Assembly: GCA_964425075.1 (NCBI GenBank)
Contig: CAYRKM010000001.1
Span: forward strand, 106,137 to 170,136
Source of the DNA: an uncultured Gammaproteobacteria bacterium
Lineage (GTDB): Bacteria; Patescibacteriota; Microgenomatia; Levybacterales; GWA1-39-11
Length of the DNA: 64,000 bases
Reading direction: 5' to 3'
Of this stretch, positions 16,217 to 34,370 are shown piece after piece. Position numbers and translations under genes: made by a program. The notes below the pieces were generated by a model, which was not told the DNA's origin, did not search any database, and saw only the letters and a list, made by a program, of their open reading frames with translations. Every line of letters starts with the position of its first letter. Within the stretch, counting starts at the first letter, position 1.

Positions 16217-16489
16217 ATGCCGCTCCTGATTGCTCTGTGGCTGATGTCCTGCATCGGCATTGGAGTACGAACGTACTCCAATCCGAAGGACATTAAGGGC
16301 ATCGCAATTGCGTTTGGACTTTGTGCTGTCCCACTCACGTGGGCATTCGGCAACGGTCCGGCCGCAATCATCATTGCGGTCTCTTTCCTCGTCTGTATTC
16401 TCTTTGGAGCCTGGCTTCGAAGATATTACGGCGAGGAGATCAACCAGTTCTTGTGCAGGCTCGAGGAGAAATTCTACGAGCTGAAATAA
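16217..16489 (+). CDS. small membrane protein in a GC-rich island (hypothetical)
   Basis: Strong SD (TAGGAGGTAAAACATG). Two to three TM helices. GC-rich relative to flanks. Confidence 0.5.
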   Translation: MPLLIALWLMSCIGIGVRTYSNPKDIKGIAIAFGLCAVPLTWAFGNGPAAIIIAVSFLVCILFGAWLRRYYGEEINQFLCRLEEKFYELK

Positions 16490-16544
16490 TGCAGACTAGA
16501 AAACCCAGCGACCAATACCCAACCTGAAAGGAAGGGATGAACAG

Positions 16545-17084: not shown

Positions 17085-17124
17085 GGGCGGCACATCGATT
17101 GGCTAAGAAACCTACGCGACTAGA

Positions 17125-17165
17125 CTCCCGCTTTGCCCTAACCGGCTGAGCGGGAGAAACCCTTT
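17125..17165 (+). terminator. stem-loop (CTCCCGCT ... AGCGGGAG, 8-bp stem) followed by a short T-run; terminator-like, closes the GC-rich island
   Basis: Perfect 8-bp inverted repeat 17125-17132/17149-17156, then AAACCCTTTT. Confidence 0.35.
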
Positions 17166-17213
17166 TAAAGCCCCAAACTTGAACTTTCTATATAAATCCA
17201 CTACGATTAAATT

Positions 17214-17822
17214 ATGCCGCTACTCTTTCAATCAATATCAATTCTCTCATCCATATTCTTTGTTTATTTAGTACAAAACTCTGTATTTAGCAGTTATTCT
17301 TCGTATCTGCTAGCCCTCCTAATTATCTTTTCAATTATCTATACTACGCTCAAAAAACGCTCAAAATCAGCTAATACTCTTTTTTCTGGCACTCCTATGG
17401 AGTTGTTTGCTAGTAGCAGCATAATTCTTTTGATAATTAGCCTTACAGGCAATATTTCCTCCCCTCTCTTCTTCTTTCTATACTTTTTATTAATAATGCT
17501 TGTTTTTCTTTCAGGCCCAATTAGCACTCTCATATTTGCTTTGGGATTAACTCTATACTTTTTACCTGAAACCTTAAATAATCCTGTCCCTGAAAACATT
17601 GTAAAACTAGCTTCATTTATTCTTTTAGCTCCAATCGGATACTTTATAGGGCGGGAATTTGAAAACAGAAAGGTGCTTGATGAAAAAATTGAAGCTAAAA
17701 CTGAGGAAATTATACAAGAAGCTCAAAATCTTAAAGAAGCGTCAAAGCAGCCTGATGAAGAAGAAGCTTTGGACGAAATTATCGAAGAGGCAGAAAGTTT
17801 GAGGCAAGACAGTGAAAAATGA
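17214..17822 (+). CDS. polytopic membrane protein with acidic coiled-coil C-terminal tail, hypothetical; ATGA-overlaps the next gene
   Basis: Four to five hydrophobic helices. C-terminus EEEALDEIIEEAESLRQDSEK. Stop overlaps the start of 17819..18595. Confidence 0.5.
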   Translation: MPLLFQSISILSSIFFVYLVQNSVFSSYSSYLLALLIIFSIIYTTLKKRSKSANTLFSGTPMELFASSSIILLIISLTGNISSPLFFFLYFLLIMLVFLSGPISTLIFALGLTLYFLPETLNNPVPENIVKLASFILLAPIGYFIGREFENRKVLDEKIEAKTEEIIQEAQNLKEASKQPDEEEALDEIIEEAESLRQDSEK

Positions 17823-18595
17823 ATATGAAAACTGCTATTAAACACCTCTATTCTCCCATGGGCACAATTGCTTTCTTAAGCATAAACTTTGCCCTTTTTG
17901 CTCTATTTTATGCTCAGACTATTGATGCTCAAAGTCGAATGTCAAACGATAGGTTCATTATTAGGTTCGGAAATCTTAACACCGCAGCTGGAAATTCTTC
18001 CAATTCACAATATGGCTTGGGACAAACTGTTGGACAAATAGCCCCAGGCCTTTATAGTGGCACAAATTACAAGGTTCGCGCGGGTTTCCAGTACATACAT
18101 AGCATCATACCCTTTGCCTTCTCTATTTCGTCACAATTTGTTGATTTTGGGCCAATTACACCAGGCGCTGCAATTACCCGTACAAATGTACTTACAATTT
18201 CAAATGGCTCAGCTTATGGATACTCAGTTCTTGCTTCAGAAAACCATCCTTTGAGGGTAAATCCGATAGGCGTAGATATTCCCGACACAACGTGTGACTC
18301 TGGAACTTGTAACGAACAAACAGCCTCAGCCTGGACAAGTGTACTCACTTATGGCTTTGGCTACCGCTGCGATAACTTAGTCGGGGCTGACTGCCAATCT
18401 GGATTTTCATCAAGTGATAATTATCGTCAGTTTGCCTCAAGTAGTTCTGGAGAATTAGCATTTCCTGTAATGCGTGGTGTAAATGTAGGCAGAAACATCC
18501 AGTCACAGATTACATATAAGGTAAATATTTCCTCAACTCAGCCTGCGGGATTATATGAAAATGTCATTACATACGTAGCTACTCCCTCTATCTAA
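17819..18595 (+). CDS. secreted surface protein, paralog of 811..2334 (C-terminus ...ITYVATPSI); possibly a divergent WxL-like domain
   Basis: Signal peptide (IAFLSINFALFALFYAQTIDAQS). C-terminal half aligns with 811..2334, see above. Confidence 0.6.
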   Translation: MNMKTAIKHLYSPMGTIAFLSINFALFALFYAQTIDAQSRMSNDRFIIRFGNLNTAAGNSSNSQYGLGQTVGQIAPGLYSGTNYKVRAGFQYIHSIIPFAFSISSQFVDFGPITPGAAITRTNVLTISNGSAYGYSVLASENHPLRVNPIGVDIPDTTCDSGTCNEQTASAWTSVLTYGFGYRCDNLVGADCQSGFSSSDNYRQFASSSSGELAFPVMRGVNVGRNIQSQITYKVNISSTQPAGLYENVITYVATPSI

Positions 18596-18995
18596 ATTTA
18601 TAAGTGAAAAGTTGCATCTTCGGAGTTAAAAGTCGCAATTTGAGCTTGGATTTGTATAATTGTAGTATATTTTGTGCGTAGTAAAGGCTAGGAATTTAAA
18701 AAACGTTGATATATCAATCCAAAGTCTATACTCTACTTGTTATCACTTTGACCATCTTTTTGCCATTTGCAATTTTGAAAACCAAGCAAACTAAATGATA
18801 TACTTTGATATATATATTTTCACAGAGTGCTTTTCACACTTAATCTCGGAAGTAAAATAAATCTATTACCGCATAACTCGAAAAATAATACAAACTTGGG
18901 CTTATATATAACTCCGCTAGAATACTACTTCTGTGAAACATAAACCCGGGAACATAAAACTTTAACTTTTAGATTATTTACAGTAGTATGAATAT

Positions 18996-19958
18996 ATGAA
19001 GCGGTTGTTTTTTATTCTTTCTTTAAGCTTATTCTTTTGCATCATTTCTTCGCAAAATGTTAGCGCCCAAGCTCTTTCTGTTAGTGTTTATCCACCCATT
19101 CTTGAAGTTCAAACTACACCTCCATCCTCACCAACGGCTCCAATTACAATTCAAAACCTAGGGGAAACAGATATTGCACTTTCAATTCAACTAATTCCCC
19201 TCAAAATGAACCCAAACGGAACAGGGGACGTTTTATTTTTCCCCGATGCACTAAATCAAGGCTTTTATGGCTACTACAAGGGTAGGATTCAATTCTTAGT
19301 TGATGACGTAAAAACTGAAAAAGTAACACTTCAAGCTCAAGAATCTAAGCAAGTAACCCTTAACATTAATCTTAAAAAGGGAGATCCTCCAGGAGACTAT
19401 TACTATGGAATTGTTTTCCTTAGCGAAGGAAAAACACTTGAGGACACATCTTTAACCTCACTTCCTGCAGGGATTTCTACCAATCTTCTACTCTCAGTTG
19501 GACCCAAAAAACCGTCGGTTGGAGGCATAACTGAATTCAGTACTTCAGCTTTTAAGAACAATGGACCGGTTGAATTTACTCTAAAGCTTCATAACGGCAG
19601 CGAGCACCTTATCAGTCCAACTGGAAAAGTATCAATAAATAATATGCTTGGTAAAAAGGTTGCCTCAATTGACATTCTACCCCAATATATTCTTGCTCAA
19701 AGCGATCGTTACTTAATAAATCAATCTTCATCAACCTCTGCTACTTTAAGCACAAATGAGACTCCAAAGGTTATTTGGAATGAAAAATTTCTTTTAGGAT
19801 TTTATACTGCAACAGCCAATATAAGGCTTGAAGAAAATGGAAATATCTTAACAGAAAAAACCTACTTCTTTGCTTTTCCTATTTATCTCTTCTTTGGTGT
19901 CGCAATTGTATTCTTTGTTCTTGCTGGAATTTATCTTAGAGTGAAGAAAAAGATGTAA
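18996..19958 (+). CDS. cell-surface protein with signal peptide and C-terminal TM anchor (CscA/DUF916-like architecture); paralog of 2430..3404
   Basis: Signal LFFILSLSLFFCIISSQNVSAQA. C-terminal FAFPIYLFFGVAIVFFVLAGIYL followed by RVKKKM. Confidence 0.6.
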   Translation: MKRLFFILSLSLFFCIISSQNVSAQALSVSVYPPILEVQTTPPSSPTAPITIQNLGETDIALSIQLIPLKMNPNGTGDVLFFPDALNQGFYGYYKGRIQFLVDDVKTEKVTLQAQESKQVTLNINLKKGDPPGDYYYGIVFLSEGKTLEDTSLTSLPAGISTNLLLSVGPKKPSVGGITEFSTSAFKNNGPVEFTLKLHNGSEHLISPTGKVSINNMLGKKVASIDILPQYILAQSDRYLINQSSSTSATLSTNETPKVIWNEKFLLGFYTATANIRLEENGNILTEKTYFFAFPIYLFFGVAIVFFVLAGIYLRVKKKM

Positions 19959-20613
19959 AGCCCCCAATACTCTTTTGCATCTTTATAGTTTCCTCGAATA
20001 ATCCTGTGTCATCTCTCAATATTCTCCAATGTATTAATTTATCCTTACATAATATGACTAAATTTAAATGGACAATTCTGTCACATCTCAATTTAATTTG
20101 CTAATATACGTCCTATAAATGATGAGTAAGCCATTTCTACTCCAGGATTTTTGGAATATATAGTAAATTAAGACACTCTACTCCTCCTTTTTTTGTAATT
20201 ATTTTACACGGGAATACAATTTATCTCCGCATAATATCAAAGTGTATCAACAATAAAAAGAACAGTTTGTTATATTTTGATATATTATTTTTTGAGCAAA
20301 ATATTTTTTTTATATATATAGGAAATTGTGAAAATTTAAAAATTAGATTTTCGCAGGATTTTGGTCAAAATTGCTAATGATGTAATCAGTATCTTAATGC
20401 ATCAAAGAAGTGCTTCCTTTTCACACACCTATTGACACCAATTACCTACTTTATTTACGCTTAGTATTAGCTATGTATAATCGATATAATCAGTATAATT
20501 TTGAGCTTATCTTCTTATCTTTCGGTAATAGTTTTTTGGCACTTTCACACACCCAAAAAATATCACATGAAAATAATATTTCTTGTTTTTCACACCCTTT
20601 CTAATATTTCACC

Positions 20614-23600
20614 ATGGAATTCCTTGAACTATTCAAAAGACAACTTACACAAACTTCAAATGGTATTTCAAAAATAAGCCTGAAGAACTATCTTTCTGAT
20701 ATTCGTCACTTTATTAACTGGTTTGAGTACACCACAGGGAACACTTTTTCACCAAAAAATATTACCGCAGAGGTAATTGAGCTATATATTGCATCCCAGG
20801 GAGCAGTAATTTCAGACGGAAACCTTTCAACCCAAGACAAACTTTCGCCAAGCTCTATGAAAAGACATCTTTCCTCGCTTCGAAAGTTTGTCTCGGTGCT
20901 CAAAAAAGAAAACCTACTTGAAGAAAATCCGTTTGAGGAAATTAACCAGACAAATGAAGAACAGAATTACGATTATTGGCACTTTGATTCATTTAAAGAT
21001 TATTTGCTCCAAAATAATGCCTCAAAATTAACCGTAAAAAATTATCTTTCTGATATAAAAGGTTTTGCAAGTTGGTACGAACAGGCAATATTACCTACGC
21101 TTATTTCCCCTCTCACCTCAACTAATGGTGCTTATCGGATCTCTCAAGAAATAGTTCAGGAATATAAAGACAGATTGTTTAATATACAATCATCAGCTCC
21201 ACGCACAATTAACCGCAAACTGTCTTCACTCCGCCGATATTTGGAGTTTGGAACGAATAAGGGCTTTATTAATCCTGGAGAAATAGTTCTACCTTCTATC
21301 CAAATAGGGAAAGAGGAGGCAGAACCTGTAAAGATTCAGCTAAAAGATCTTAATCAAACTCAAACTTTAGAAACAAAAAGCTATTCTTCCTTTCCTCCAG
21401 CAAGACTTCTTCAAAAGCTAGTTATTTTCCCTTATTTACTTCTTGAAGATGCCGTTGCCTCAAAAGTCGCAACAATTATGACTGGAAAAGAAATGATTGC
21501 AGGAATTGCACTTTCTCAATTAGATAAAGTGAAAATGAGCACTCGCGCTATAGTCAATGCTCAAAATCAATCAATTGACGCGATTTTGGGCGTAAGAAAT
21601 GTAAAAAAGGAATTCTATGCTCCTCACCAAGTACAATTATCTGGACTCCCTTTCCACAAAAAATTACTTTATCATGCACGATATACTAGACCAAAATGGT
21701 ATAAAACATATCATAGTTATCCATTTGTACATTATGCCCATTTTGCACTCCTTATAATCTTTGCAGTTGGAGTTGGGGTTGCAGCTTATCAGAATTTGGT
21801 AGGAAAAAATCAAAGACCAACCTTTGCCGCCCCCACGGCTCCACCGAGAATACTTTCATTTCAGGGAAGACTAACTGACGCAAGTGATAACCCAATTACA
21901 AGTGCAACGGATATCCGGTTTGCAATTTATAATGATCTTTCAGCATCAGGCGCTGCTCTTTTGTGGCAAGAAGTTCACTACGTTGTAACCCCTGACCAAG
22001 ATGGAATATTCTCCGTACTTTTGGGAACAAATGATGCAATACCTTCAACTGTATTTTCAGATAATGCAGGAACTTATCTTGGTGTTACAATCAACCAAAC
22101 ATCAGAACTTACGCCACGTCAAAGAATTGCCGCAGTTGCATACGCTACTAATTCTGAACAGCTTCAAGGAATGCCTCCTATTACCGCAGGTGGGGCTGGA
22201 ACCTCAAATGTTGTACTAGCACTTGATTCATCAGGTAATCTAACCATTGGTGGAAGCGCAGCTCCAACCTTTACAGCCTCGGGGGGTCAATTCAGACTAT
22301 CGGGTCAGCCTCTTGTTCTAAATACAAATTCAAGTTCAAATGGAAATATCGTTCTTGCTCCTGATGGACTTGGAAGGATAGATCTTCAAAAACCACTAGT
22401 AAATAGTGGAACTTCAGGGAACATTACTCCAGGGGGAGTTGAGGTAAATGATAAATTTGGAGTTCTTGCAACAGAATCGGGAGTCGCATCATTTGTTATC
22501 AACAACAATGGTTCAAGCGACATTTTTACAGCCTCATCATCGGGATCTCCTCGCTTTACTATCTCAACAACAGGCGCTCTTACTATTCCAACATATAACA
22601 CAAATGGTGGAATCTTCTATGCAAATGGTTCGGGAGTTGTTGCACAGACAACTGCAGGAAGCTCGGGGGAATGTTTGCAGTCAATTGGAGGAGGAACACC
22701 AACTTGGGGATCTTGCGGAAGCGGCAGCGGAAGTCTTTGGAGATTATCAAGTGGCGCTTTATCTCCCATAAATGATACTGCGGATGTATTGATTGGAAGT
22801 AATGCTACAGCAAGCGCGAAATTCGCATTCATAAATGTTGCTGGGGGAACACCAACAGCTTCAATCTCTGCAAGTAGCGGAAACAATTGGACAACATTAA
22901 GCGGAGATGGAATTTTGGGAACAACAAACAAACAAACACTTTCTATAGGAAACAGCTCGACAGGAATTATTGCAATTAATTCTCCCGAGAACAGTAAAAC
23001 CTCAATTGGAACAGGCTCAACACTTGGAACACTTAAGATTTCAGGTCAGTCTCCGGGAAAAGCTTTAGTAAACCTCCAATATCTAGGGTCTGGTCAAAAT
23101 ATTTTGGTTGCATCAAATTCCGCCGGAACCAATGTCTTTACTATCGAGGAGGACGGAGACATTATTGTGGGAAATGCGGGTGCAGGCAAATTGACAGCTG
23201 CAATAATTGACCCTTATCTAATCCAAAATCAATACACGTCAGTTACTCCCGAACTTATTTTCCAAACAATGGCAGCTACAAGTGGAGACTTTATATATAA
23301 AAACCAATCAACCGAGCTTGCACGCCTTGCCCAAGCCGGACAATTTCAACTTCCAATAACAGGCTCTTCAGGAGGACTTGTAATTGGAGCTGACACACAG
23401 CTTTTTAGAGGCTCTGCCGATAGGCTTGATTTAGCATCAGGCGACTCATTTAATCTTGTTTCGGGTAGCATTCAAATTGGCGGAACTACGGTTATTGACT
23501 CCTCACAAAATGCAACATTCAGCAGCCTAACTGTTACTGGTGGATGTACGGGTTGTGTAAGCGCATCAGATTCACCTTTTAAGGTATTAAGTGGTGCAAT

Positions 23601-26600
23601 TGTACCACTCAACTCAACGCTTGACTTCACTCTTGGTGGTCAATCAAGCGCATCAGCAAAATTTGCAGTACTTAATATCGGCACAGGAACACCCACAGCT
23701 TCAATCTCTGCAAATTCTGGAGATAATGCTCTATATATAACAGGAGACGGTTCTCTTGCAACAACCAATAGACAAAGCCTAACAATTGGAAATTCATCAA
23801 CATATAACACAACGGGAAATGTGCTGATAAATTCTAATGCAACCGGCAATGTTGGGTTAAGAACCGCAACGCCTACAAGTTTCAACGTAGAATTTGCGGG
23901 AAGCCTTGGACCAGCAGTAGATAATTCCTCTGTTCTTGGATCTGCATCAAGGAGATTAAATTCTATATATTTAGGTGACGGTGGTCTCCAAGCTGTAGGC
24001 AATGCCGGAACTTCCGGATCTGTAAATATCAATACAGCTGCAAGTGCTGTTACGGTCACTAGATACGGACAAAGGATATTGAATAATACGTTAAATACTA
24101 CAACAGACGGAATTGATAAATATGGACTTTATATCAACAACACAGGTTCTTTTACAGGACTGACAGGAACTTCTACCAATAACTACTCTTTATACATCTC
24201 TACACCTTCAGGTGCTGATAACAATTATTCTATATATTCAGCGGGTGGAACAAATTACCTTGCAGGAAATACAGGACTTGGTACAACAACACCGACAGCT
24301 CTTCTTGATGTAGCAGGTACTGCTTCTGTTTCAGGGGCTTTGAAGCTATATGGAACTCCTACCATCCAATCTACTGCAAATCAAACATTGACACTAGGTG
24401 GAGATACAACTGGAAGTATTGTGCTTTCACCTCTCAATGGTTCGGGGACAATTCAACTTACAAATTTTACTACAAACGGTGGCTTAATATATACTAATGG
24501 ATCAGGTGTACTGGCTCAAACCGGTGCAGGAAGCGCTACTCAATGTTTGCTTGGAGGCACTACTCCTACTTATGGCAGTTGTGCAACTGGAACAACCGTA
24601 ACACCTTTCCAAGAATTAACTGGTGCAATAGTACCAAATAATTCAACTCTGGACTTCCTAATTGGAGGGCAAGCAACAGCAAGTGCTAAATTTGGAATAT
24701 TAAATATAGCCGGAGGAACACCAACCGCCTCAATTAGTGCAAATAATGGGAATATAGCAACTTACCTTGCCGGTGACGGGACTCTTGCAACTACAAATAG
24801 GCAAACTTTAACTATTGGTAATTCCTCTACATACAACACAACGGGAGAAGTACTAATAAATCCTAATGGAACTGGAAATGTAGGCGTCGGGACAACAAGC
24901 GCAAGGTCAAAATTCCATGTTGCCAATGCTTACTCAGGCCAAGCAACACCTAATGCCTCTTCTATCTTAACAATTGAAAACAATGCTAATGCATATTTAA
25001 GTTTTCTTACACCGGCCAATGTTCAGAGCGGTATCCTTTTTGGAAGTCCTACAAATTCAGCTCAAGGACAAATTACCTACAATCATTCTTCAAATTATTT
25101 AAATTTTTATACAGGAGGAGCTGATAGGGCTAGAATTACAAGCACGGGTTTTGGAATCGGCATGACTTCACCAATATCTCAACTTCATGTTTCAAGAAGT
25201 GCAGCGGCTACGGGCAAAGCATTGGCTGTTTTTGATCAAACGGAAAGTCAAGATATAATAACAGCTTCTGCTTCTGGTATTACAAAGTTTGCAATTACAA
25301 ACAGTGGGGTTTTGCAACTTGTTGGTGGACAAACTTCAGATATTGATACTTTAACAAATGCTACTCTAAATATTGGGGCGACAAATGCCACCACTATTTC
25401 TATTGGTCGATCAAGCCAAGGTATTACACTTCCTGGATTTACTGGTCAAAATGGAATACTTTATGGAACTTCAGGAACTGGAGTATTAGCTCAAGCGACT
25501 ACTGCCTCTACTGGTCTTTGTCTACTCTCAGGAGCCGCAAATCCAGCTTGGGGAACTTGTCCAACAACAGGAAATTCAAGCTCAAACTGGACACTGAACT
25601 CAACAGATGGAACTCTTTATCCAATAAATAGTACTCTTGATGTATTAATAGGTAATACTGCATCAACTTCTGCCAAATTTGCATTCTTAAATGTTGCTGG
25701 AGGAGTACCCACAGCTTCAATTTCTGCAAATACAGCTGATAACAATACTTTCTTAACAGGAGCTGGTAACCTTGCAACAACCAACAAACAAACCCTAACA
25801 CTTGGGGGCAGCACAACAGGAGGAATAGTTATTGATTCAGGAAGCTCCTCAATAAATCTTGCGGATGATACCTCTATAACAGGTAATATTACTGGCTCAG
25901 GTACAACTGGACTTACTCTCACGGGTGCTGGAGCTGGAATTACCTTCTCAGGAAGTGGACTTCATGAAATAGGTGCCTCATCAGGAACTCTTCGAATTGG
26001 AACACACACACTAACCGGCGCAATAACCGGAGGAAATCAAAATATCAGCTCAATTGGTAACATCTCAGCGAATTCTTCCTCAAATACATTAACTGGTTTT
26101 GGAACAATTGGAACTTCTGGAACTACTGCTTTCGTTGGCACCAACCTAACCCTAGCAGGTGCTGCAACTGATATAACTTCAGGTGCCAATCAAGACTTGG
26201 CAATAACTGCAAATGGTACAGGAAACCTAATACTTACCACAGATTTTGATACTAGCGTAAAAGTTGGTACATCAAATAATATCATGGCACCTCTTTCGGT
26301 ATCTGGAGGTATCGGATCTAATGCTGGATTTATCCTAGATCAACTTAATGATGGGGACTTATTCACTGCCTCTGCTGCTGGGGTTACTAAATTTACTTTC
26401 ACAAACGGCGGGTCGCTTAACCTTACAGGTGGTCAAACAATAGATACTTTAGCTTCCGGAACTCTAGGAATTGGCACTACAACAGCTACTACTCTTACGT
26501 TGGGCAGAAGTGGACAAGGGATTACACTTCCAGGCTTTACGGGTCAAAATGGAATACTTTATGGAACTTCAGGAACTGGAGTACTTGCACAGGCCACGAC

Positions 26601-29577
26601 TGGCACTCCTAGTCTTTGTCTTCTCTCAGGAGCCTCAAATCCAACCTGGAGCACTTGCCCAACCTCAGGAAGTTCTAATTGGACTCTTGATACAGCTGCT
26701 GGTGTGATACGTCCAAACAACAATACAGTTGATTTTCTATTAGGTGGAACAGCAACTGCAAGCGCTAAATTTGCAGTTCTAGGGATTAATGGAGCTACAG
26801 TTCCAACTGCATCACTTTCTGCAACAACCGCTTCCGGCGGCGATGGAAATGGTATTACTCTAAGTGGAGATGGATCAATACAAAGCTTGAGAAATAATAC
26901 ATTAACGCTAGGAGGAGCCACAACTGGAAGTATCCAATTCAAACCAGGCAATATTTCAACTCCTTCACTCTACCTTGCAACCGGCGGAAATGTGGGAATT
27001 GGAATAGCAGCTCCAACAGAACTTCTTCATTTGTATAAAACAACTGGTAATTATGCAACATTACGGTTTGATTCAGGAACTACCCAAGGATATGCCTTCT
27101 CATATGACGGAGATAATAGTGTAAATATAGGAGCAAATAGTAGCAGTCTATTGCACTTAAGAACGAGTAATGCAGCAAGAGCAACAATCCTTGCAAGCGG
27201 AGAATTCGGTATTGGTACTACGACCCCTGTCTCTCAATTACATGTAACAAGGGCGCTCTCCCTTGGAGCAACTGGAAAAGCCTTGGGGATATTTGACCAG
27301 ATAGAGAACCAGGACATCTTTACGGCCTCCTCTGCAGGTATCACGAAGTTTGTTATGGGAAATGATGGAAGAATTGGCATAAATACTGCTGCCTCACCTA
27401 CAGGAGTTAACCCACTTGCAATGCTTCAGGTTTACTCAAGTCTTGGCACTACTCCAGCAGCTTCAATTTCAGCTACAACTGCTAACGCTGTCCTTAGAGT
27501 AGACCAGAATGGAGTTGGGGATTTCATAGTTGCTTCAAAAGCTGGTCAAACATATTTCAAGATAACTGCAAGTGGAGATGCAGAAATTGGAGTTAATGCG
27601 GGTGGAAAACTTAATGCAGGAACCGTTGACCCTCCTTATACTATTGATGGAGAAGGATATGCTACTTATATGCCTTCAATGATAGGTGTAAAGGAAGAAT
27701 ATGCAGGAAAAGCCGTCCTTTCTTATGATTCTCGTGCAGGTGCTTACGTATATAAATTAGACTTCAATAACTTTGAGAGACAATCTGACCAGTGGGTTTA
27801 TAACCGCATTATCGATCCTGATATTTCCAATGTTTCGGTTTTGATGACTCCAAATTCAGCAGCGCGCACATGGTACAAAAAAGATGGTACAAATCGCACC
27901 ATAACTCTATATGCAGATAGACCTGTTGAAATTTCTTATAGATTAACTGCTCCAAGATTTGATCATGATAAATGGAAAACTTATACAGGTATTCCAAAGG
28001 GACATATTGCTCCACCGCCAACAATTAACGGTAGTTCAGAAAACGACAACAACATGGAGGTTGATCCTTACTTTGCAACTCTTTCTATAAATGAAGAAAA
28101 CGGACAATATGTTCTAAAAGATTCATACAATAACAAAGTGAATCATATTGATGCATTCTCAAAAACAATTTCTGCCAAGATTGAGGCGGGATGGGTACAA
28201 GCCAAAAAGATAACTTCTGACACAATTTCTGCAGGAAGTGCTAATTTCAACAACCTTACAGCCTCAACTCTTGCGCTAACGAGTGACTCAATAACAATTA
28301 GTGGCCAAAATCTTCGCGACTTTATAGTTGCGACAGTTCAAAATGCAGGCTTAACTCAAAATGGCAATGAAATTATCTCCCCTCTTGCATCAATTGACAT
28401 GATAAAAACAAATGTAATTTCACCACTTGCTGAAGAAGGTTCAGTTGCTCTTCACATAAATCCAAACGACCTTACTCTTAAAAATACGCAGACAGGTGAA
28501 ACGGTTGCAAAGATTGATAATCAGGGTAATTTAAATGCCCGAAGCGCGAGCTTCTCAGGAACACTTGAATCAGAAGTTGCCTTATTTGACAGTGCAAGCG
28601 TATCAGGCAATTTAGCAACCAACACTCTTCAAGCCAATAATGCTTCAGTTGCTGGAACTTTGAGGGCTGACAAGATTATCGCAAATGATATTGAAGGCAT
28701 TGATAACCGCATCTCATCAATTGCAAACAACCTCATCAATACAGCCTCAGGCTCAGGCAGCTTTACAGATGGAGGCAATTTGGCAGTTGGTTCTCTTAAT
28801 GCCCAATTTGGATTATTTGAGCAAGGAATAGTATCTCTTGGTTCAGGAACATTTACTCAACTTACTGCAATGGACTCTATCTCTATTGGTCAAGGATTTA
28901 TTTTAGGCAATAATTCAATTAATACATTGGGTGCAGATCTAGAAATCCAACCGCTTCGCCAGGGAAATATTTCATTCATGGCGGGACGAGTCACGATTGA
29001 CACCGATGGAAATATGGCGGTAGACGGAAATATTAGCATACAGGGTAATTTGGCTGCCGCACGCGGAATATTTAGCGACACTATAGAATCCCGTGCATTA
29101 GTTACTAACATAATCTCACCACTTGCTGATAAAGATTTGGTGTTCAAGCTTAATGGTGAAAGTTTTGCCTCAAATTCAGGTAAACTTCAAATTCAAAATA
29201 CCCAAGGAAACCAGGTATTGGCAATTAATAACAAGGGAGATATTATCTCTTCCGGATCTGCAAGGTTTGGCAAGCTTAACCTTTCCCTAGTGGGTAAGGC
29301 TGAGGCTATAAATGAAAACGAAGCAGTTGCAACAGGAAGCGCAGGATTTGCAACCCTAAAGAGAGGAAGAACTGAGCTTACTATCATTAATCCAAATGTT
29401 ACTAAGGACTCACTTATTTACGTTACTCCATTTGGGGACACAAGCAACAAGGTCATATATTTATTGCGCCAAACTCCAAATGAACCTGAGAATGGTATAC
29501 AAGGATCATTTACGGTCGGGGTTTCGGGAACTACTACGACACAGGACTTACAATTTAACTGGCTTGTTGTGAATTAA
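20614..29577 (+). CDS. giant (2987 aa) single-pass membrane protein: cytoplasmic N-terminus with two tandem tyrosine-recombinase N-terminal SAM-like (core-binding) domains, one TM helix (~aa 374-396), huge extracellular region with >=5 tandem ~130-aa Cys-pair repeat modules and a C-terminal Gly/Asn/Ser-rich fibre-like region
   Basis: aa ~15-110 and ~135-225 each match the integrase SAM-like/core-binding pattern (LKNYLSDIRHFINWFE..ITAEVIELYIA..MKRHLSSLRKFVSVLKKENLLEENPFEEI; and LTVKNYLSDIKGFASWYE..ISQEIVQEYKDRL..RKLSSLRRYLEFGTNKGFINPGEI). TM is YAHFALLIIFAVGVGVAAYQNLV, preceded by the basic stretch HARYTRPKWYKTYH. Repeat consensus ..NG(I/L)(L/F)YxxGSGVLAQ(A/T)T(A/T)GSxxxCLLSG..NP.WG.CP...(N)WTL....G.(I/L).P.N.T.D.L(I/L)GG.A(T/S)ASAKFA.LN(V/I)AGGTPTASISAN.(G/A)(D/N)N....(L/T)G.G.LATTN(K/R)Q(T/S)LT(I/L)G.S(T/S)T. 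Confidence 0.8.
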   Translation: MEFLELFKRQLTQTSNGISKISLKNYLSDIRHFINWFEYTTGNTFSPKNITAEVIELYIASQGAVISDGNLSTQDKLSPSSMKRHLSSLRKFVSVLKKENLLEENPFEEINQTNEEQNYDYWHFDSFKDYLLQNNASKLTVKNYLSDIKGFASWYEQAILPTLISPLTSTNGAYRISQEIVQEYKDRLFNIQSSAPRTINRKLSSLRRYLEFGTNKGFINPGEIVLPSIQIGKEEAEPVKIQLKDLNQTQTLETKSYSSFPPARLLQKLVIFPYLLLEDAVASKVATIMTGKEMIAGIALSQLDKVKMSTRAIVNAQNQSIDAILGVRNVKKEFYAPHQVQLSGLPFHKKLLYHARYTRPKWYKTYHSYPFVHYAHFALLIIFAVGVGVAAYQNLVGKNQRPTFAAPTAPPRILSFQGRLTDASDNPITSATDIRFAIYNDLSASGAALLWQEVHYVVTPDQDGIFSVLLGTNDAIPSTVFSDNAGTYLGVTINQTSELTPRQRIAAVAYATNSEQLQGMPPITAGGAGTSNVVLALDSSGNLTIGGSAAPTFTASGGQFRLSGQPLVLNTNSSSNGNIVLAPDGLGRIDLQKPLVNSGTSGNITPGGVEVNDKFGVLATESGVASFVINNNGSSDIFTASSSGSPRFTISTTGALTIPTYNTNGGIFYANGSGVVAQTTAGSSGECLQSIGGGTPTWGSCGSGSGSLWRLSSGALSPINDTADVLIGSNATASAKFAFINVAGGTPTASISASSGNNWTTLSGDGILGTTNKQTLSIGNSSTGIIAINSPENSKTSIGTGSTLGTLKISGQSPGKALVNLQYLGSGQNILVASNSAGTNVFTIEEDGDIIVGNAGAGKLTAAIIDPYLIQNQYTSVTPELIFQTMAATSGDFIYKNQSTELARLAQAGQFQLPITGSSGGLVIGADTQLFRGSADRLDLASGDSFNLVSGSIQIGGTTVIDSSQNATFSSLTVTGGCTGCVSASDSPFKVLSGAIVPLNSTLDFTLGGQSSASAKFAVLNIGTGTPTASISANSGDNALYITGDGSLATTNRQSLTIGNSSTYNTTGNVLINSNATGNVGLRTATPTSFNVEFAGSLGPAVDNSSVLGSASRRLNSIYLGDGGLQAVGNAGTSGSVNINTAASAVTVTRYGQRILNNTLNTTTDGIDKYGLYINNTGSFTGLTGTSTNNYSLYISTPSGADNNYSIYSAGGTNYLAGNTGLGTTTPTALLDVAGTASVSGALKLYGTPTIQSTANQTLTLGGDTTGSIVLSPLNGSGTIQLTNFTTNGGLIYTNGSGVLAQTGAGSATQCLLGGTTPTYGSCATGTTVTPFQELTGAIVPNNSTLDFLIGGQATASAKFGILNIAGGTPTASISANNGNIATYLAGDGTLATTNRQTLTIGNSSTYNTTGEVLINPNGTGNVGVGTTSARSKFHVANAYSGQATPNASSILTIENNANAYLSFLTPANVQSGILFGSPTNSAQGQITYNHSSNYLNFYTGGADRARITSTGFGIGMTSPISQLHVSRSAAATGKALAVFDQTESQDIITASASGITKFAITNSGVLQLVGGQTSDIDTLTNATLNIGATNATTISIGRSSQGITLPGFTGQNGILYGTSGTGVLAQATTASTGLCLLSGAANPAWGTCPTTGNSSSNWTLNSTDGTLYPINSTLDVLIGNTASTSAKFAFLNVAGGVPTASISANTADNNTFLTGAGNLATTNKQTLTLGGSTTGGIVIDSGSSSINLADDTSITGNITGSGTTGLTLTGAGAGITFSGSGLHEIGASSGTLRIGTHTLTGAITGGNQNISSIGNISANSSSNTLTGFGTIGTSGTTAFVGTNLTLAGAATDITSGANQDLAITANGTGNLILTTDFDTSVKVGTSNNIMAPLSVSGGIGSNAGFILDQLNDGDLFTASAAGVTKFTFTNGGSLNLTGGQTIDTLASGTLGIGTTTATTLTLGRSGQGITLPGFTGQNGILYGTSGTGVLAQATTGTPSLCLLSGASNPTWSTCPTSGSSNWTLDTAAGVIRPNNNTVDFLLGGTATASAKFAVLGINGATVPTASLSATTASGGDGNGITLSGDGSIQSLRNNTLTLGGATTGSIQFKPGNISTPSLYLATGGNVGIGIAAPTELLHLYKTTGNYATLRFDSGTTQGYAFSYDGDNSVNIGANSSSLLHLRTSNAARATILASGEFGIGTTTPVSQLHVTRALSLGATGKALGIFDQIENQDIFTASSAGITKFVMGNDGRIGINTAASPTGVNPLAMLQVYSSLGTTPAASISATTANAVLRVDQNGVGDFIVASKAGQTYFKITASGDAEIGVNAGGKLNAGTVDPPYTIDGEGYATYMPSMIGVKEEYAGKAVLSYDSRAGAYVYKLDFNNFERQSDQWVYNRIIDPDISNVSVLMTPNSAARTWYKKDGTNRTITLYADRPVEISYRLTAPRFDHDKWKTYTGIPKGHIAPPPTINGSSENDNNMEVDPYFATLSINEENGQYVLKDSYNNKVNHIDAFSKTISAKIEAGWVQAKKITSDTISAGSANFNNLTASTLALTSDSITISGQNLRDFIVATVQNAGLTQNGNEIISPLASIDMIKTNVISPLAEEGSVALHINPNDLTLKNTQTGETVAKIDNQGNLNARSASFSGTLESEVALFDSASVSGNLATNTLQANNASVAGTLRADKIIANDIEGIDNRISSIANNLINTASGSGSFTDGGNLAVGSLNAQFGLFEQGIVSLGSGTFTQLTAMDSISIGQGFILGNNSINTLGADLEIQPLRQGNISFMAGRVTIDTDGNMAVDGNISIQGNLAAARGIFSDTIESRALVTNIISPLADKDLVFKLNGESFASNSGKLQIQNTQGNQVLAINNKGDIISSGSARFGKLNLSLVGKAEAINENEAVATGSAGFATLKRGRTELTIINPNVTKDSLIYVTPFGDTSNKVIYLLRQTPNEPENGIQGSFTVGVSGTTTTQDLQFNWLVVN

Positions 29578-30052: not shown

Positions 30053-32185
30053 TCATTTAATTATGTAGCTTATTTCAATTGCTGTAAAACCAGAGCGTAC
30101 AATGGGGTCAAAAACAGGTGGTTTGGGTGAAAGGCTTGGCTTAGTTTCAAACTGTTCAATGTAAAAAACGATGTTTCGGTAAGTATCGGGTTGACGACTA
30201 AAATAAATCGGTAAAATTTGTTTTGATAAACTGTTGTCATAAAAAGATAAAAATACATAAGGCGAATTAATATGATTTTTAGCGAAATTCACGGCGTCTT
30301 CAGTTTCTCTTTGATTTAAACCAAAATTTATTGCATATTCACGAATTGTTTTATCAATACTTGAGGCATCTATAACTTTTCCATATGCAGGCCGCTCAAG
30401 TTTCATATCTGGATTGTAGTTAAAAGATATATTCTCAACGGATTTTCCGTTTGCAACAAAGGAGCCATTATTGCCTAAAGTAATTTTGAAACCTTCCTCA
30501 GGATTGTAGGCAGTATTTACGGAATAAATTGGTATTCCAACGGACACCTTCAAATTTGTTCCCTCTTCTCCGTACAAATATAACGGGCATGTTCCTGAGC
30601 ACATATTTGTAGCATTGTTTACGCAAGAAGCTTGCTCAGCACCATCAGTAAGAGTTCCACAGGCTTGTGCTGCTGCTGTTTGTGTACAGTCCAATTGAGA
30701 AGTATTATTTGCGTTCGTTGATGAAGGGAAATTATTCCTTGCGATTCTTACAGGTGCAAGCGTTGGTTTTACAACAAATGTATCAAGTTGCAATTGTTCT
30801 CTTTGCGGTTTGACTGCGTTTCTACCCAAAACTGCTGAATCAAAAAAATTTGCATCTGTTAGTGCTATGAATTGTATAAAAGAATCATTATGATTTACAG
30901 CTACACGCTCACCTGTTTTTTGGTCAAAAATGGATACCGCACTAAGAGACTGTTCGTATCTTGCTCCAAGATTTCCCATAGCAGATTGACCGGTAGCAAC
31001 GCTTGTTAGTAAGAGTTTTCCGTTAGATAAAGAGGTTTTAATGGTGTTTACAGATGTTTTAGATGAATCATCATACGCAATGTCAAAATCTATCTTTTTT
31101 GAAGAATTTTGACTAAATGAATAGCTGTGTGTTTCAAGAGATTTCGTTGTAGAGTTTACAACTTGGTATAGAATGTCTCCTGTTGTTAAATCAAAAGTAG
31201 CTGAAGTAAAGACATCATCTCCTTGAGCTGTTATTAATTTTGTCCTGCTTTTTGTTGTAACATCTAATGTTTCTATGGTATTTGCAACCGAAAATACTCT
31301 TTTTGCTCCATTCACAATTTGAGTTCCGTCACCTCTCGCCCCATCATAACCCACAAAAACAAATTTTGATTCATCCTCTGAAAGCGTGGGTTGATTAGCA
31401 TAGGTCCCATCTTGCATAGAAGTAAGATCCCCCCTGCTTGTTCCTGTAAAATTAGAAACGCTCATGCCATATGACCATCCCATGCCAGCGTTTGGTATAA
31501 ATTTATTAACATAAATTTCACCACTACTTGTAATTGCAATGGGATAGCGAATTGTGTTTCCGGGAGTTGCAACCTCGTCATAAATTAAGTTTTTTTGTCC
31601 AGGATTTTGTATATCAATGCTATAAATCCTTGATTTTGCGTCTATAAGCTGAGGGGAATCTGAGGCTAGACTTAATTCCCAGGTTGTTATATATCTACCG
31701 TTTTTAGACACAAAGTAGTCATCTATTCCAAAATTCTCTTCTGCAGTTACAATCACTGTTTCTTTTTTAGAAGAAATATCATAAAGAACAAGAGACTTTG
31801 CATAGTCTCGCGCATCTGTATCTTTTAGAAATAAAAGCTCGTTATTCGATAGAACTTTTACGTTCTTAATATTGGTTGGTAGAGTTGCAAGTGTGGCAGC
31901 TGTATTTGTTGAAAGATCCGTAACTTCAATCACAGAGGAGCTTCCTGCCCAATATCCATACACTAAAGCATTATCGGACAAAAATTTTTTTTCAACTGTC
32001 TGTTTTTGTTGGTTTTGAGAAGACTTGCTATTGTTTTGACGGGCTGAATTCCATGCAAACGCGCCTCCAAATAAAATAATCACAACTAGCAAAACCACTA
32101 CTCCTTTTATATTGGTTCTAGGATCTACTTTCTGAAACCAAGAACTTTGGTTGACTTGTACCTGGGGCTGATTATTTTCTTCCAC
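30053..32185 (-). CDS. N-terminally TM-anchored beta-propeller (TolB/WD40-like) protein with Cys-containing conserved C-terminal domain; tandem paralog of 32235..34370
   Basis: N-terminal TM (GVVVLLVVIILFGGAFAW). Repeated propeller-blade-like segments. C-terminal ~110 aa nearly identical to the paralog. Confidence 0.55.
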   Translation of the reverse strand: MEENNQPQVQVNQSSWFQKVDPRTNIKGVVVLLVVIILFGGAFAWNSARQNNSKSSQNQQKQTVEKKFLSDNALVYGYWAGSSSVIEVTDLSTNTAATLATLPTNIKNVKVLSNNELLFLKDTDARDYAKSLVLYDISSKKETVIVTAEENFGIDDYFVSKNGRYITTWELSLASDSPQLIDAKSRIYSIDIQNPGQKNLIYDEVATPGNTIRYPIAITSSGEIYVNKFIPNAGMGWSYGMSVSNFTGTSRGDLTSMQDGTYANQPTLSEDESKFVFVGYDGARGDGTQIVNGAKRVFSVANTIETLDVTTKSRTKLITAQGDDVFTSATFDLTTGDILYQVVNSTTKSLETHSYSFSQNSSKKIDFDIAYDDSSKTSVNTIKTSLSNGKLLLTSVATGQSAMGNLGARYEQSLSAVSIFDQKTGERVAVNHNDSFIQFIALTDANFFDSAVLGRNAVKPQREQLQLDTFVVKPTLAPVRIARNNFPSSTNANNTSQLDCTQTAAAQACGTLTDGAEQASCVNNATNMCSGTCPLYLYGEEGTNLKVSVGIPIYSVNTAYNPEEGFKITLGNNGSFVANGKSVENISFNYNPDMKLERPAYGKVIDASSIDKTIREYAINFGLNQRETEDAVNFAKNHINSPYVFLSFYDNSLSKQILPIYFSRQPDTYRNIVFYIEQFETKPSLSPKPPVFDPIVRSGFTAIEISYIIK

Positions 32186-32234: not shown

Positions 32235-34370
32235 TTACCTAACGATGGAGCTTATCTCGATTGCTGTAAAACCAAAACGCACAATGGGGTCAAAGACAGG
32301 AGGTTTGGGTGAAAGGTTTGGCTTAGTTTCAAACTGTTCAAAATAGAACACAATGTTTCGATATGTATCAGGATGTATCGAAAAGTATAGAGGTAGGATT
32401 TGTTTTGAGAGATTATCATCATAAAATGAAACGTACACATAGGGGCTTGTAATTTCTTTTGCAAACATCACACTATCTTCTGTTTCCTTTTGATTAAATC
32501 CTAATTTTTCAGAATATTCCTTAATGGTTTGCTTGAGATCTGAAAGTTTTACAATTTTTCCGTAAGAAGGTCTAGATAATTTTCTGATGGCAGATGTGTA
32601 ATCAAAGGAGATACTTTCAACTACACTTCCATTTGCCCGAAACTTCCCATCCGATAAAAGCGTAATATCAAATCCATTTTGAGGTAAATATAAAACATTT
32701 GTAGAAAAAATTGGAGTACCTACAGATACATTTAAACTAACTCCCTGTTGTCCATATAAATATAACGGGCTTCTATAACACGACCCCGATGTTCCATCTG
32801 CATCTGTCCATGATTGAATAAAACACCCGTCTTTTGTGTCAAGACCCGCACACTGCTGCTGCAAAAGATCACTTCCACAACCCCTGTCTATTGGGGTATT
32901 TTGTATAGGACCTTGTTGAGGCGGTTGACTTTGGTTTATTTCTCGCACTGGAGCAAGTGTAGGTTTTACTGCAAATGTTTCCAATTGAAGCTGCTTTCCC
33001 TGAGAATTAATTGATTTATTTGCCTGCTTGTTTGCATTTAAATTAGAAGTTTTAAAGTATTTAGAACCTTTTAAGGCTATAAATTGCACGTACCCACCAT
33101 TTAGGCTAACTCGTTCACTGCTTCCTGATTTTGGAGTAAAAACTGACAAACTACTTATTGATGGTTCATAACTAAAACCTAGATTCCCAAGCGCTGAGTC
33201 CGAAAGAACACTTTCTGATAACAATAAACTCCCTCCCTGAAGAGATGACCGCACCGATCCTCTATTACCTTCCGGAAGGTCAACTTTTTTAGAGGAATGA
33301 GTGTCAAAATAATATTTATTTATGTCCCTGCCAGTTTTATCATCATAAGAAGCGTAAATTATATTTCCGTCTTGTAAATCCCATTGCGCCTTCTGGTAAA
33401 TTCCGTCAATACCCGAAACCAATTTGGTTCTGATTTTTGTATTTGTATCAAAAACTTCAATAGTATTAGGAGTAACAGACGCTCTTCTGTAACCATTCAC
33501 AATTTCCACACCATCCCCTTTACTACCATCATAGCCTATAAAAAGTATTTTTCCCCCGTCCGGTGATATTATTGGTTGGCTTGAATATGTTCCGTTGGCC
33601 ATTGAAGCAATTTCTGACTTAACTGAACCTGTAAAATTGCTCATACTCATACCATAAGCCCAACCCACACCCGAATTTGGCAAAAATTTATCCATAAAAA
33701 TCTCACCATTATCCGTTATTCCAACAGGATAATGCACTGCAATACCTACGGGCGCAGCCTCATCATAAATTAAATTTTTACTTCCTGGTTTTGAAATATC
33801 AACACTATAAACTCTTGAACGACCTCCCGATAGTATTGATGAATTTGGTGCTGGGCTTATTTCCCATATGGCAATATATTTACCATTTGGTGAAACCACA
33901 TATAAATCAATTCCATACCCTGAATCTGTAGTGGATATAACATTCTCAGTACTATCACTAATCCTATAACTAACAACGCTCTTCCCATAGTCAGATGCGT
34001 CAGTATCTTTTATAAAAATTAAATTGTCATCTGAAACAACACTAACCTGCTTGATGTTATTTGGCAAAACGGCAAGTGTGCTGTTTGTGCTTGTTGATAG
34101 ATCTACTGACTCAATAACTGAATTTTTATCAACCCAATAACCATATACTACTGAATTGTCTGCAAGAAATTTTGTCTCTGTAGACTGCTTTTGTTGTTCT
34201 GTCTCTTTTTTTGAAGAATTTCTCTCAGAATTCCATGCAATCGCACCTCCAAACAAAATAATCACAACTAGCAAAACCACTACTCCTTTTATATTGGTTC
34301 TAGGATCTACTTTCTGAAACCAAGAACTTTGGTTCACCTGAACCTGATGAGGCTGATTATTTTCTTCCAT
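32235..34370 (-). CDS. N-terminally TM-anchored beta-propeller protein; tandem paralog of 30053..32185
   Basis: Same architecture. The first ~45 aa and last ~80 aa are nearly identical to the paralog at protein and DNA level. Confidence 0.55.
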   Translation of the reverse strand: MEENNQPHQVQVNQSSWFQKVDPRTNIKGVVVLLVVIILFGGAIAWNSERNSSKKETEQQKQSTETKFLADNSVVYGYWVDKNSVIESVDLSTSTNSTLAVLPNNIKQVSVVSDDNLIFIKDTDASDYGKSVVSYRISDSTENVISTTDSGYGIDLYVVSPNGKYIAIWEISPAPNSSILSGGRSRVYSVDISKPGSKNLIYDEAAPVGIAVHYPVGITDNGEIFMDKFLPNSGVGWAYGMSMSNFTGSVKSEIASMANGTYSSQPIISPDGGKILFIGYDGSKGDGVEIVNGYRRASVTPNTIEVFDTNTKIRTKLVSGIDGIYQKAQWDLQDGNIIYASYDDKTGRDINKYYFDTHSSKKVDLPEGNRGSVRSSLQGGSLLLSESVLSDSALGNLGFSYEPSISSLSVFTPKSGSSERVSLNGGYVQFIALKGSKYFKTSNLNANKQANKSINSQGKQLQLETFAVKPTLAPVREINQSQPPQQGPIQNTPIDRGCGSDLLQQQCAGLDTKDGCFIQSWTDADGTSGSCYRSPLYLYGQQGVSLNVSVGTPIFSTNVLYLPQNGFDITLLSDGKFRANGSVVESISFDYTSAIRKLSRPSYGKIVKLSDLKQTIKEYSEKLGFNQKETEDSVMFAKEITSPYVYVSFYDDNLSKQILPLYFSIHPDTYRNIVFYFEQFETKPNLSPKPPVFDPIVRFGFTAIEISSIVR

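Follow-up and report, generated by a model that had tools for sequence, protein, structure and literature searches.

A predicted membrane-anchored fibre of Levybacteria with a tandem integrase-type core-binding head

The stretch of DNA analysed here, which we call the window, comprises 64,000 nucleotides (nt) of contig CAYRKM010000001.1 (positions 106,137 to 170,136, assembly GCA_964425075.1). It contains a giant fibre gene that stands in a fixed Levybacteria locus: comEC, comEA and leuRS lie on the minus strand, followed by three membrane or surface genes and then by the fibre gene itself. From its N- to its C-terminus, the product of this gene consists of two core-binding (SAM-like) domains of the integrase type, a basic juxtamembrane segment, a single transmembrane (TM) helix and an ectodomain of 2590 amino acids (aa) (Table 1). 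We consider it very likely that, with the architecture and topology as predicted, this is a membrane protein of type II (N-in/C-out) in a Levybacteria cell.

Table 1. Coordinates of the fibre gene, its leader and its neighbours (positions are those of the window unless another locus is named)
Feature	Position	Strand	Basis or remark
Polytopic membrane protein, acidic C-terminal tail	17214-17822	+	
Secreted Cys-containing protein, 258 aa	17819-18595	+	
WxLIP_PGBD-like protein, signal peptide and C-terminal anchor	18996-19958	+	sometimes duplicated in relatives
Three TTTCACAC(A/C)C motifs in leader (20419, 20543, 20588)	20419..20597	+	
-35-like hexamer TTGACA of conserved upstream promoter	20432..20437	+	
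Three tandem 9-nt units, GTATAATCG ATATAATCA GTATAAT (together GTATAATCGATATAATCAGTATAAT)	20475..20499	+	
Whole open reading frame (ORF) of the fibre gene	20614..29577	+	ATG start, 2987 aa plus stop
SAM-like/core-binding domain 1, aa 1-117	20614..20964	+	Pfam, NCBIfam, AlphaFold2 (AF2) pLDDT (predicted local distance difference test) about 90, Foldseek matches XerA and IntI
SAM-like/core-binding domain 2, aa 124-216	20983..21261	+	second Pfam stretch, XerA model aa 126-222, internal duplication, AF2
Cytoplasmic linker and juxtamembrane segment, aa 217-369	21262..21720	+	alignment, AF2, charge count
Single TM helix, N-in/C-out signal anchor (predicted), aa 370-397	21721..21804	+	hydropathy, AF2 helix, family charge bias
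Membrane-proximal beta-rich domain, about aa 405-520	21826..22173	+	conserved in all relatives; PPRILSFQGRLTD...LWQE...PDxDGIFS...PRQ
Cys-pair module 1 (Cys687/701)	22570..22986	+	
Cys-pair module 2 (Cys978/981)	23464..23850	+	truncated, CTGC
Cys-pair module 3 (Cys1311/1323)	24448..24870	+	
Cys-pair module 4 (Cys1636/1649)	25420..25848	+	
Cys-pair module 5 (Cys2002/2015)	26518..26946	+	
Beta-sandwich domain, about aa 2360-2455	27691..27978	+	AF2 pLDDT 80-96
Conserved C-terminal region, about aa 2520-2987	28171..29574	+	same ORF in 45 orthologous loci; 117 database relatives
Beta-sandwich tip domain, aa 2890-2987	29281..29574	+	AF2 pLDDT above 90, last 100 aa; tail-fibre-type fold matches
23S-rRNA-IVS/Avd-like four-helix-bundle gene, 127 aa	29612-29995	+	35 nt after fibre stop
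MerR/HTH_17-headed fibre genes of other loci	L002 18019-22232; L068 14324-21424; L079 15428-21289; L008 about 5830-10489; L021 about 15270-17452; L161 3001-3610		

Architecture and conservation of the fibre protein

A preliminary description, made from the DNA letters without database searches, had proposed two tandem SAM-like domains at the N-terminus, and profile searches together with structure prediction bear this out. Phage_int_SAM_1 matches in two stretches of the protein (Pfam, E=1.4e-11, 44.9 bits against a cut-off of 22.3), Phage_int_SAM_4 is matched as well (E=9.5e-10), and the XerC/XerD-type models of NCBIfam find a second stretch at aa 126-222. Furthermore, aa 7-110 and 127-225 constitute an internal duplication (29.7% identity, E=1.6e-8), and AF2, supplied with an alignment of 27 sequences, folds both domains into confident helical bundles, whose best matches in the PDB (Foldseek) are XerA, an integron integrase and three isolated integrase N-domains. 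A PDB search with the single sequence of aa 1-230 returned only noise. In the 27-member alignment, K24, N25, Y26, D29, F33, S81, R84, S87, L89 and F92 are invariant in the first domain, and T140, K142, N143, Y144, D147, F151, W154, R201, K202, S204 and S205 in the second, such that in both copies the residues kept are the polar and basic ones of near-canonical XerC/D-type motifs.

The catalytic domain of tyrosine recombinases, already noted as missing in the preliminary description, has no match anywhere in the protein: Pfam gives none for PF00589 at E<=1, and the XerC/XerD models align only at model positions 8-100 of about 295, with 61.7 bits against a cut-off of 335. Because this defining domain is absent, the window protein cannot be a site-specific recombinase. 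An OmpR-type winged helix was likewise sought, and no Trans_reg_C match was found in the window protein (Pfam, NCBIfam).

Two further candidates from these searches were set aside. Chain 14 of PDB 9i5v ('RaiA'), a 400-aa protein of P. gingivalis of which 34 residues are modelled on the ribosome, was matched by the family profile (E=6.7e-10); the match is to an ordinary integrase-type N-terminus and was judged irrelevant. As for the apparent 'half-SAM' members P0296, P0318 and P0335, at least P0335 is a split-gene artefact.

Between the head and the membrane lies a linker that AF2 renders as disordered parts, with long disordered stretches at aa 225-254 and 289-330, and low-confidence helices. 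It carries two family-specific motifs that are invariant in the 27-member alignment, YSxFPPxRLxQK and RYTRPxWYKxYHSY. Hydropathy gives one strong hydrophobic segment in the protein, at aa 371-395, which AF2 renders as a long helix of aa 370-397, and no signal peptide is predicted for the protein. There are 13 K/R and 4 D/E in aa 291-369, and across 46 orthologues the mean net charge is +5.3 before the TM helix versus +2.0 after it, the former exceeding the latter in 41 of the 46. Since a basic loop precedes the helix and the charge bias holds across orthologues, N-in/C-out is the best topology prediction, which agrees with the earlier proposal of a basic stretch, one TM helix and a cytoplasmic N-terminus. 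Charged residues make up, as a family mean, 13.5% of the ectodomain versus 23.8% of the cytoplasmic part. A topology with two TM helices, the additional one at aa 261-290, was rejected, because the loop leading to the TM helix is strongly basic and the second peak rises above threshold in only 6 of 46 orthologues.

The membrane-proximal domain, with which the ectodomain begins, has no sequence relative in the PDB, where a single-sequence search gave nothing above noise. Further out, ten cysteines form five close pairs, one in each of five homologous modules of ~130 aa that are 41-58% identical to each other. These modules had been described as tandem; they are homologous, but they are dispersed, one per 300-365 aa within larger super-repeats, and the second is truncated. 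The Cys pairs presumably form extracellular disulfides. With 10-18% G, 7-17% S, 8-19% T and 5-11% N, and with scarce charged residues, the composition is as Gly/Asn/Ser/Thr-rich as had been claimed.

Five fragments of the window ectodomain compared with Pfam and PHROGs yielded nothing usable, and its kinship emerges from relatives and from predicted folds. Four full-length relatives of about 1200 aa (P0107, P0114, P0135, P0129) combine two SAM-like domains and a TM helix with a Peptidase_G2 or Peptidase_S74 domain. In relatives of this length, G2 scores 32-38 bits (cut-off 25) and S74 37 bits (cut-off 22). The G2 domain is matched in P0076, P0107, P0114 and P0135, the S74 domain in P0129 and P0087, and P0129 has the canonical SSDERLKHNI motif. 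P0092 joins one SAM-like domain to collagen triple-helix repeats and to a C-terminal region as in the window protein. In the relatives, the S74 or G2 domain immediately precedes the region homologous to window aa 2520-2987, with about 470 residues following; in the window protein, the beta-sandwich domain of aa 2360-2455 stands where relatives have the chaperone domain.

When aa 2291-2987 were modelled with AF2, only this beta-sandwich domain and the last 100 residues came out with confidence. The shaft has low confidence, as is expected when a trimeric fibre is modelled as a monomer. The fold matches of this model in the PDB are weak (Foldseek, best E=0.008), and the top ones are Bdellovibrio Bd2133, Bd1334, Bd2439 and Bd3182, the receptor-binding domain of the Pam1 tailspike, T4 gp34, lambda gpJ and pyocin fibres. 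In BFVD there are 62 matches at E<=1e-3 (best 3.5e-10), and those that carry names are for the most part Caudovirales proteins of the tail-fibre, collagen-repeat or chaperone-domain kind. The ectodomain is thus akin to tail fibres, and by its sequence the window protein would correspond to a non-S74 type of such fibres. By analogy the fibre is probably trimeric, and we think it likely that the exterior is an adhesive, tail-fibre-like fibre.

The architecture recurs in related genomes. In a scan of one genome per species, at least 164 loci encoding the N-terminal module were found, 80 of which were kept; among the kept loci with real organism names, nearly all are Candidatus Levybacteria/Levyibacteriota. 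The titles 'uncultured Gammaproteobacteria' of many related loci appear to be placeholder names, since these loci share Levybacteria synteny. The window LeuRS shares 67% identity with that of L045 and 60% with those of named Levyibacteriota loci. When aa 340-560 were searched against 1.84 billion cluster representatives, 297 clusters matched at E<=1e-30 and 3001 at E<=1e-10. Among the best 150 representatives, lengths go up to 6048 aa, and most have their match beginning at residue 290-450, so that they will have the same two-domain head. The database homologue search covered proteins shorter than about 1.75 times the query, and full lengths were taken from the genome loci and the representative search.

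Could the gene be an assembly artefact, in which repeat collapse or a chimera fused an integrase fragment to an unrelated fibre gene? It is repetitive, many database copies are split or ended at contig ends, and a database look-up found no record identical to the window protein. However, 45 other, independent assemblies have the N-terminal module, the TM helix and a region homologous to window aa 2290-2987 in one uninterrupted ORF of 1272-3710 aa (median 1494), and in all relatives of the 27-member alignment the juxtamembrane/TM segment runs on into both flanks. Repeat collapse is not indicated, because the DNA copies of the modules are just 73-77% identical to each other. The fibre gene thus includes the N-terminal part, and the artefact, which the preliminary description had named as a concern, is hardly credible. 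ORFs with more Cys modules, which range from 0 to 5, tend to be longer (r=0.79). The window copy is a long, module-expanded allele, in which the architecture is firm and the module count provisional.

At one related locus, L162 (360-2100; GCA_900174565.1, FWPU01007154.1), an insertion of ~640 bp with a 132-aa ORF splits the second SAM-like domain. It may be a mobile insertion or an intron-like element. A tandem GTATAAT element lies upstream of the first fragment of the split gene.

Exchange of the head and repeats in the leader

Six fibre genes that are paralogous or positionally equivalent to those described above have another head, in that a MerR/HTH_17 (excisionase-type) helix-turn-helix (HTH) domain replaces the SAM-like pair. 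In L002, L068, L079, L008 and L021, the HTH-headed gene is a second fibre gene downstream of the SAM-type gene, and in L161, which belongs to Woesebacteria, it is divergent from the adjoining leuRS. The proteins of L002 and L161 continue after the HTH with an NTRPxWYxRYH juxtamembrane motif, a TM helix and a PPRILSFQGRLTD ectodomain as in the SAM-type fibres, and those of L068, L079, L008 and L021 have in common the order HTH, linker, TM helix and fibre. In database relatives, the HTH domains belong to PF12728, PF00376 and PF13411. Two unrelated DNA-binding folds at the same position of the same chassis would seem to be the best available argument, on sequence grounds, that selection maintains nucleic-acid binding. 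On balance, we lean towards the view that the cytoplasmic tail binds nucleic acid.

The leader of the fibre gene contains a conserved element. Most orthologous loci have ACTCTAGGnnnTTGACA-N17-TATTCTAAT, plausibly a sigma-70-type promoter, upstream of tandem 9-nt GTATAATNN units, which are a candidate operator, or else a promoter or pause element. In the window, the element GTATAATCGATATAATCAGTATAAT lies 38 nt past TTGACA and 114 nt short of the ATG.

The repeats are all but confined to this gene, as searches in both directions show. The forward count covered both strands of 82 non-redundant orthologous loci (1.28 Mb), 78 of them with upstream sequence. TATAAT-N3-TATAAT occurs 93 times, and 81 of these occurrences lie no more than 450 nt upstream of the fibre gene and on its strand, in 70 of the 78 loci; in five further loci it is found 450-1080 nt upstream. 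Perfect GTATAATNN units number two in 62 loci and three in 15, usually with a degenerate unit before them and CTCGAGGCTAAA after. The reverse search, made with an exact 20-nt form of the element, gave matches in 72 metagenome contigs (loci L089-L160). A SAM-like ORF follows, at a median distance of 45 nt, in 62 of the 65 assessable contigs (63 with L094, which was judged by eye). The other contigs are seven that end too early to tell, one with a chance match in GC-rich coding DNA, and L136, to which we return below. In L087, a distant SAM-type member, the tandem units overlap the start-codon region, and its repeats are therefore transcribed. L088, a single-domain member, has just one TATAAT.

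All six MerR-type genes lack the tandem leader element upstream. They have their own conserved promoter, and some of their leaders contain other direct repeats: L002 and L161 have three copies of AAATCTA, L008 and L021 two copies of TTTGTCC.

Other motifs also recur in the leader of the fibre gene. Among them are TTTCAC motifs; the three leader sites with TTTCACAC(A/C)C are the sole matches in the 64-kb window, where 0.33 would be expected, and TTTTCACA is found in 46 of 71 orthologous leaders. The motif GAGGCTAA, which follows the units, occurs 7 times in the window versus 1.85 expected. With regard to RNA, Rfam gave no match to the leader at gathering or E-value thresholds, and RNAalifold found no conserved pairs across 36 leaders. 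We also considered that the repeats might serve promoter inversion or phase variation driven by a recombinase, and rejected this, since no inverted repeats flank them and they keep one orientation from locus to locus.

Some of the same vocabulary is found between leuRS and the next gene (window 16000-16120), where there are GAAAATT(G) repeats, ACTCTAG/ACTCCAGG motifs, GAGGCTAA and TATAAT-N5-TATAAT. The fibre leader and this intergenic region may have a promoter grammar in common.

Neighbouring genes

The three genes directly upstream of the fibre gene (17214-19958, plus strand) are kept in 45-71 of 85 loci. No recognisable domain was found in the family of the middle one (17819-18595); its identity as a WxL-domain protein is unsupported, and no WxL-domain protein was found. 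WxLIP_PGBD is matched by 16 of 24 members of the family of the third gene, with a best E=1.4e-8, the window copy reaching only E=0.008. Because this family is WxLIP-like, with a signal peptide and a C-terminal anchor, the locus has the look of a gene cluster for a surface structure.

In the window, the competence genes comEC and comEA are both found within 9 kb, and 31 of 85 loci have comEC. This neighbourhood would suit a DNA tether, in which the cytoplasmic tail holds the chromosome or incoming DNA fast at the fibre's base and DNA handling is tied to comEC/comEA. However, the competence genes are on the opposite strand, with leuRS and three other genes intervening, Woesebacteria show only the adjacency to leuRS, and the pattern fits a lineage-wide gene order, not an operon. 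We therefore hold a tether, one of the two functions raised in the preliminary description, to be decidedly improbable.

Within leuRS (12870-15869, minus strand, 999 aa), an alpha/beta-hydrolase insert of ~155 aa (Ser_hydrolase, E=1.4e-11) occupies aa 250-404, directly ahead of the editing domain. It is common to a clade of L045, L065, L053, L047 and L072 and absent elsewhere, for example from the 766-aa LeuRS of L005.

The gene that follows the fibre gene matches 23S_rRNA_IVP (E=4.4e-37) and the PHROG 'Avd protein of DGR' (E=1.9e-10), with bAvd below the cut-off. Its position 35 nt downstream, and a similar gene after the fibre cluster of L002, raised the idea that the fibre might be the hypervariable target of a diversity-generating retroelement (DGR). 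Against this, Pfam found no reverse transcriptase among the 40 largest ORFs of the window, no template/variable repeat pair matching the 3′ end of the fibre gene was found, and Avd-like genes are near only 8 of 85 loci, in varied position and orientation. The link was rejected on these grounds, and we give a DGR next to no chance here.

Further downstream, two tandem paralogues of 710 and 711 aa (30053-32185 and 32235-34370, minus strand) have one N-terminal TM helix each and no Pfam match, and the ends of their genes are 78-90% identical in DNA. The region 34502-39839 encodes a small leucine-rich repeat protein, a 1208-aa F5/8 type C (discoidin) protein and a 332-aa protein with a prepilin-type N-terminal methylation motif. 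Tandem direct repeats are found at 54863-54992 (40-nt units, spaced by 63 and 27 nt) and at 43027-43122 (45-nt units, 51 nt apart).

A possible membrane-integrated regulator and its relation to known systems

The reading that we favour, although we would put it somewhat short of an even chance, is that of a trimeric fibre that binds a host or surface and whose DNA-binding tail makes it a membrane-integrated regulator in the manner of ToxR and CadC, possibly autoregulated. Outside the cell, the membrane-proximal beta-rich domain would carry a tail-fibre-like fibre of variable length, probably trimeric, which in the window protein would have five disulfide-bearing knob modules and two beta-sandwich domains at its end. 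This fibre would be the working part that binds the host cell or surface. Inside, the two core-binding domains would have lost the catalytic domain and retained DNA binding. Their most likely DNA target would be the 9-nt GTATAATNN direct repeats, two or three in number, of their own gene's leader, because two head-to-tail domains fit head-to-tail repeats; ToxR and lambda Xis, too, bind tandem direct repeats. That the leader repeats are the site bound by the tail is nevertheless possible rather than probable in our estimation. Whether the fibre is assembled, clustered or engaged would then determine the grip of the tail on the leader DNA and thereby feed back on transcription. As to how a signal might travel from outside to the head, clustering, with the avidity of three tails per fibre, would be the simplest idea, and release by cleavage the main alternative.

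Several observations weigh against this reading. In known recombinases, the isolated core-binding domain is only a weak DNA binder. The window protein itself has no match to S74, G2 or collagen domains, so that the case for its trimer comes from relatives, and the fold matches of aa 2291-2987 are those of a monomer model with a mean pLDDT of 65. The weaker second hydrophobic stretch at aa 261-290, a helix in the model, is unexplained. With respect to the leader, GAGGCTAA is also found near other genes and in MerR-type leaders, and since the leader and the head-coding DNA are adjacent, their co-occurrence may be explicable by common descent alone.

Other such points are at the same time arguments for a plain adhesin, in which the SAM-like pair is a structural or assembly anchor with no nucleic-acid role and the leader repeats are a strong or unusual promoter. 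The pair may, for instance, dock on the neighbouring polytopic membrane protein or oligomerise the tails, and this polytopic protein (17214-17822) is conserved upstream together with surface proteins. The tandem TATAAT units resemble -10 boxes, with a -35-like TTTACG 16 nt before the first, and could be just that, or a sigma-dependent pause site. In L136 (Ga0182027_10001177, element 1325-1344, minus strand), the whole promoter and element precede another TM-anchored surface protein, one without a SAM-like domain. Moreover, DNA binding by the pair is what we infer. Against a plain adhesin, it is difficult to see why sister fibres should have two unrelated folds, core-binding and MerR/HTH_17, in one position if DNA binding were not under selection, and the invariant residues of both copies are the polar and basic ones of canonical XerC/D motifs. 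We therefore treat the plain adhesin as a doubtful, though serious, alternative.

A third possibility is a regulator that is released by cleavage, similar to Notch or to regulated intramembrane proteolysis, in which engagement or tension of the fibre leads to a juxtamembrane or intramembrane cut and the soluble head acts as a transcription factor. CadC is activated by proteolytic cleavage (PMC11484849). In the present protein, the disordered linkers (aa 225-254 and 289-330) and the conserved juxtamembrane motifs would be possible docking or cleavage sites, and the ectodomains of relatives contain self-cleaving S74 domains. However, no protease gene is linked to the locus, and the S74 motif is missing from the window protein. 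Release by cleavage thus appears unlikely to us.

For the membrane-integrated regulator that we favour, and hence for the transmembrane signalling that the preliminary description suggested beside DNA tethering, the evidence is circumstantial, consisting of the head swap to MerR/HTH_17 and the gene-specific leader repeats.

A large part of bacterial diversity consists of Patescibacteria (the Candidate Phyla Radiation), which live attached to other cells and have few recognisable regulators, and to our knowledge it is not known how they sense attachment. An adhesive fibre with a DNA-binding-type head would link surface contact to gene expression by a route that can be tested directly. One could go further and speculate, with a good deal of doubt, that Patescibacteria with their reduced genomes sense contact through their adhesins, such that attachment, clustering or tension of the fibre alters transcription without an intermediary. 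The heads, acting in the membrane like ToxR or cut loose like Notch, would then have been exapted from recombination modules (integrase core-binding domains, Xis/MerR-type HTH), each matched to direct repeats in the leader of its own gene. There is also a consequence for annotation. The family comprises at least about 300 clusters (E<=1e-30), and because its members are named 'site-specific integrase, partial' or 'XerD' in databases, they inflate the counts of mobile elements in these genomes.

The preliminary description did not recognise the protein as belonging to a described family, and this holds in part. A targeted full-text search of the literature found no description of a SAM-like-headed membrane fibre, and we know of no earlier case in which a membrane protein has, as its cytoplasmic module, an integrase core-binding domain put to new use apart from the catalytic domain. 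The ectodomain, however, is like phage tail fibres and near to the fibres of Bdellovibrio, and is not an unknown kind of fibre.

With XerC and XerD, the protein shares the N-terminal four-helix core-binding domain with its motifs S..T.KNY..D...F..W and S..R.LS.LR.F; it differs in having no catalytic domain, and in having two core-binding domains in a row, joined to a membrane anchor and a fibre. The Xis/MerR-type HTH proteins resemble the heads of the paralogous fibres, and the direct repeats bound by lambda Xis parallel the leader repeats. Those proteins are small and soluble, whereas in the paralogous fibres the HTH forms the N-terminal end of a membrane-anchored protein of ~2000 aa, and the head of the window protein is of the core-binding type.

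The closest parallel for the overall layout is found in regulators of the ToxR/CadC type, which have a cytoplasmic N-terminal DNA-binding domain, a linker, one TM helix and an extracytoplasmic domain (PMC6320335, PMC5430869, PMC11484849), an arrangement that is predicted here as well. CadC locates its target DNA while it is membrane-bound (PMC6320335). However, their DNA-binding domain is an OmpR-type winged helix, in place of which the present family has a tandem core-binding head (MerR/HTH_17 in paralogues), and their sensor domain is small, whereas here it would be a fibre of 900 to more than 5000 aa.

For the exterior, the nearest relatives are the mosaic adhesive trimer (MAT) fibres of Bdellovibrio bacteriovorus and the tail fibres of phages (PMC10769870; PDB 8ond, 8oml, 8ol4, 7eea, 4uw8). 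They, too, are long modular fibres with a variable tip, with members that have or lack an S74-type self-cleaving chaperone, and the matches are at the level of the fold. In MAT proteins, a beta-rich domain that is conserved and about 130 aa long follows the export signal, to which aa 405-520, following the TM helix, can be likened by position, and MAT fibres are used by a bacterium that lives on other bacteria. The differences are that MAT proteins have a cleaved signal peptide and no cytoplasmic part, and that their chaperone domain is terminal, whereas in relatives of the present protein about 470 residues follow the S74 or G2 domain. In place of the cleaved signal peptide, the Levybacteria fibre has a predicted signal anchor and a cytoplasmic module of ~370 aa that is of a DNA-binding type.

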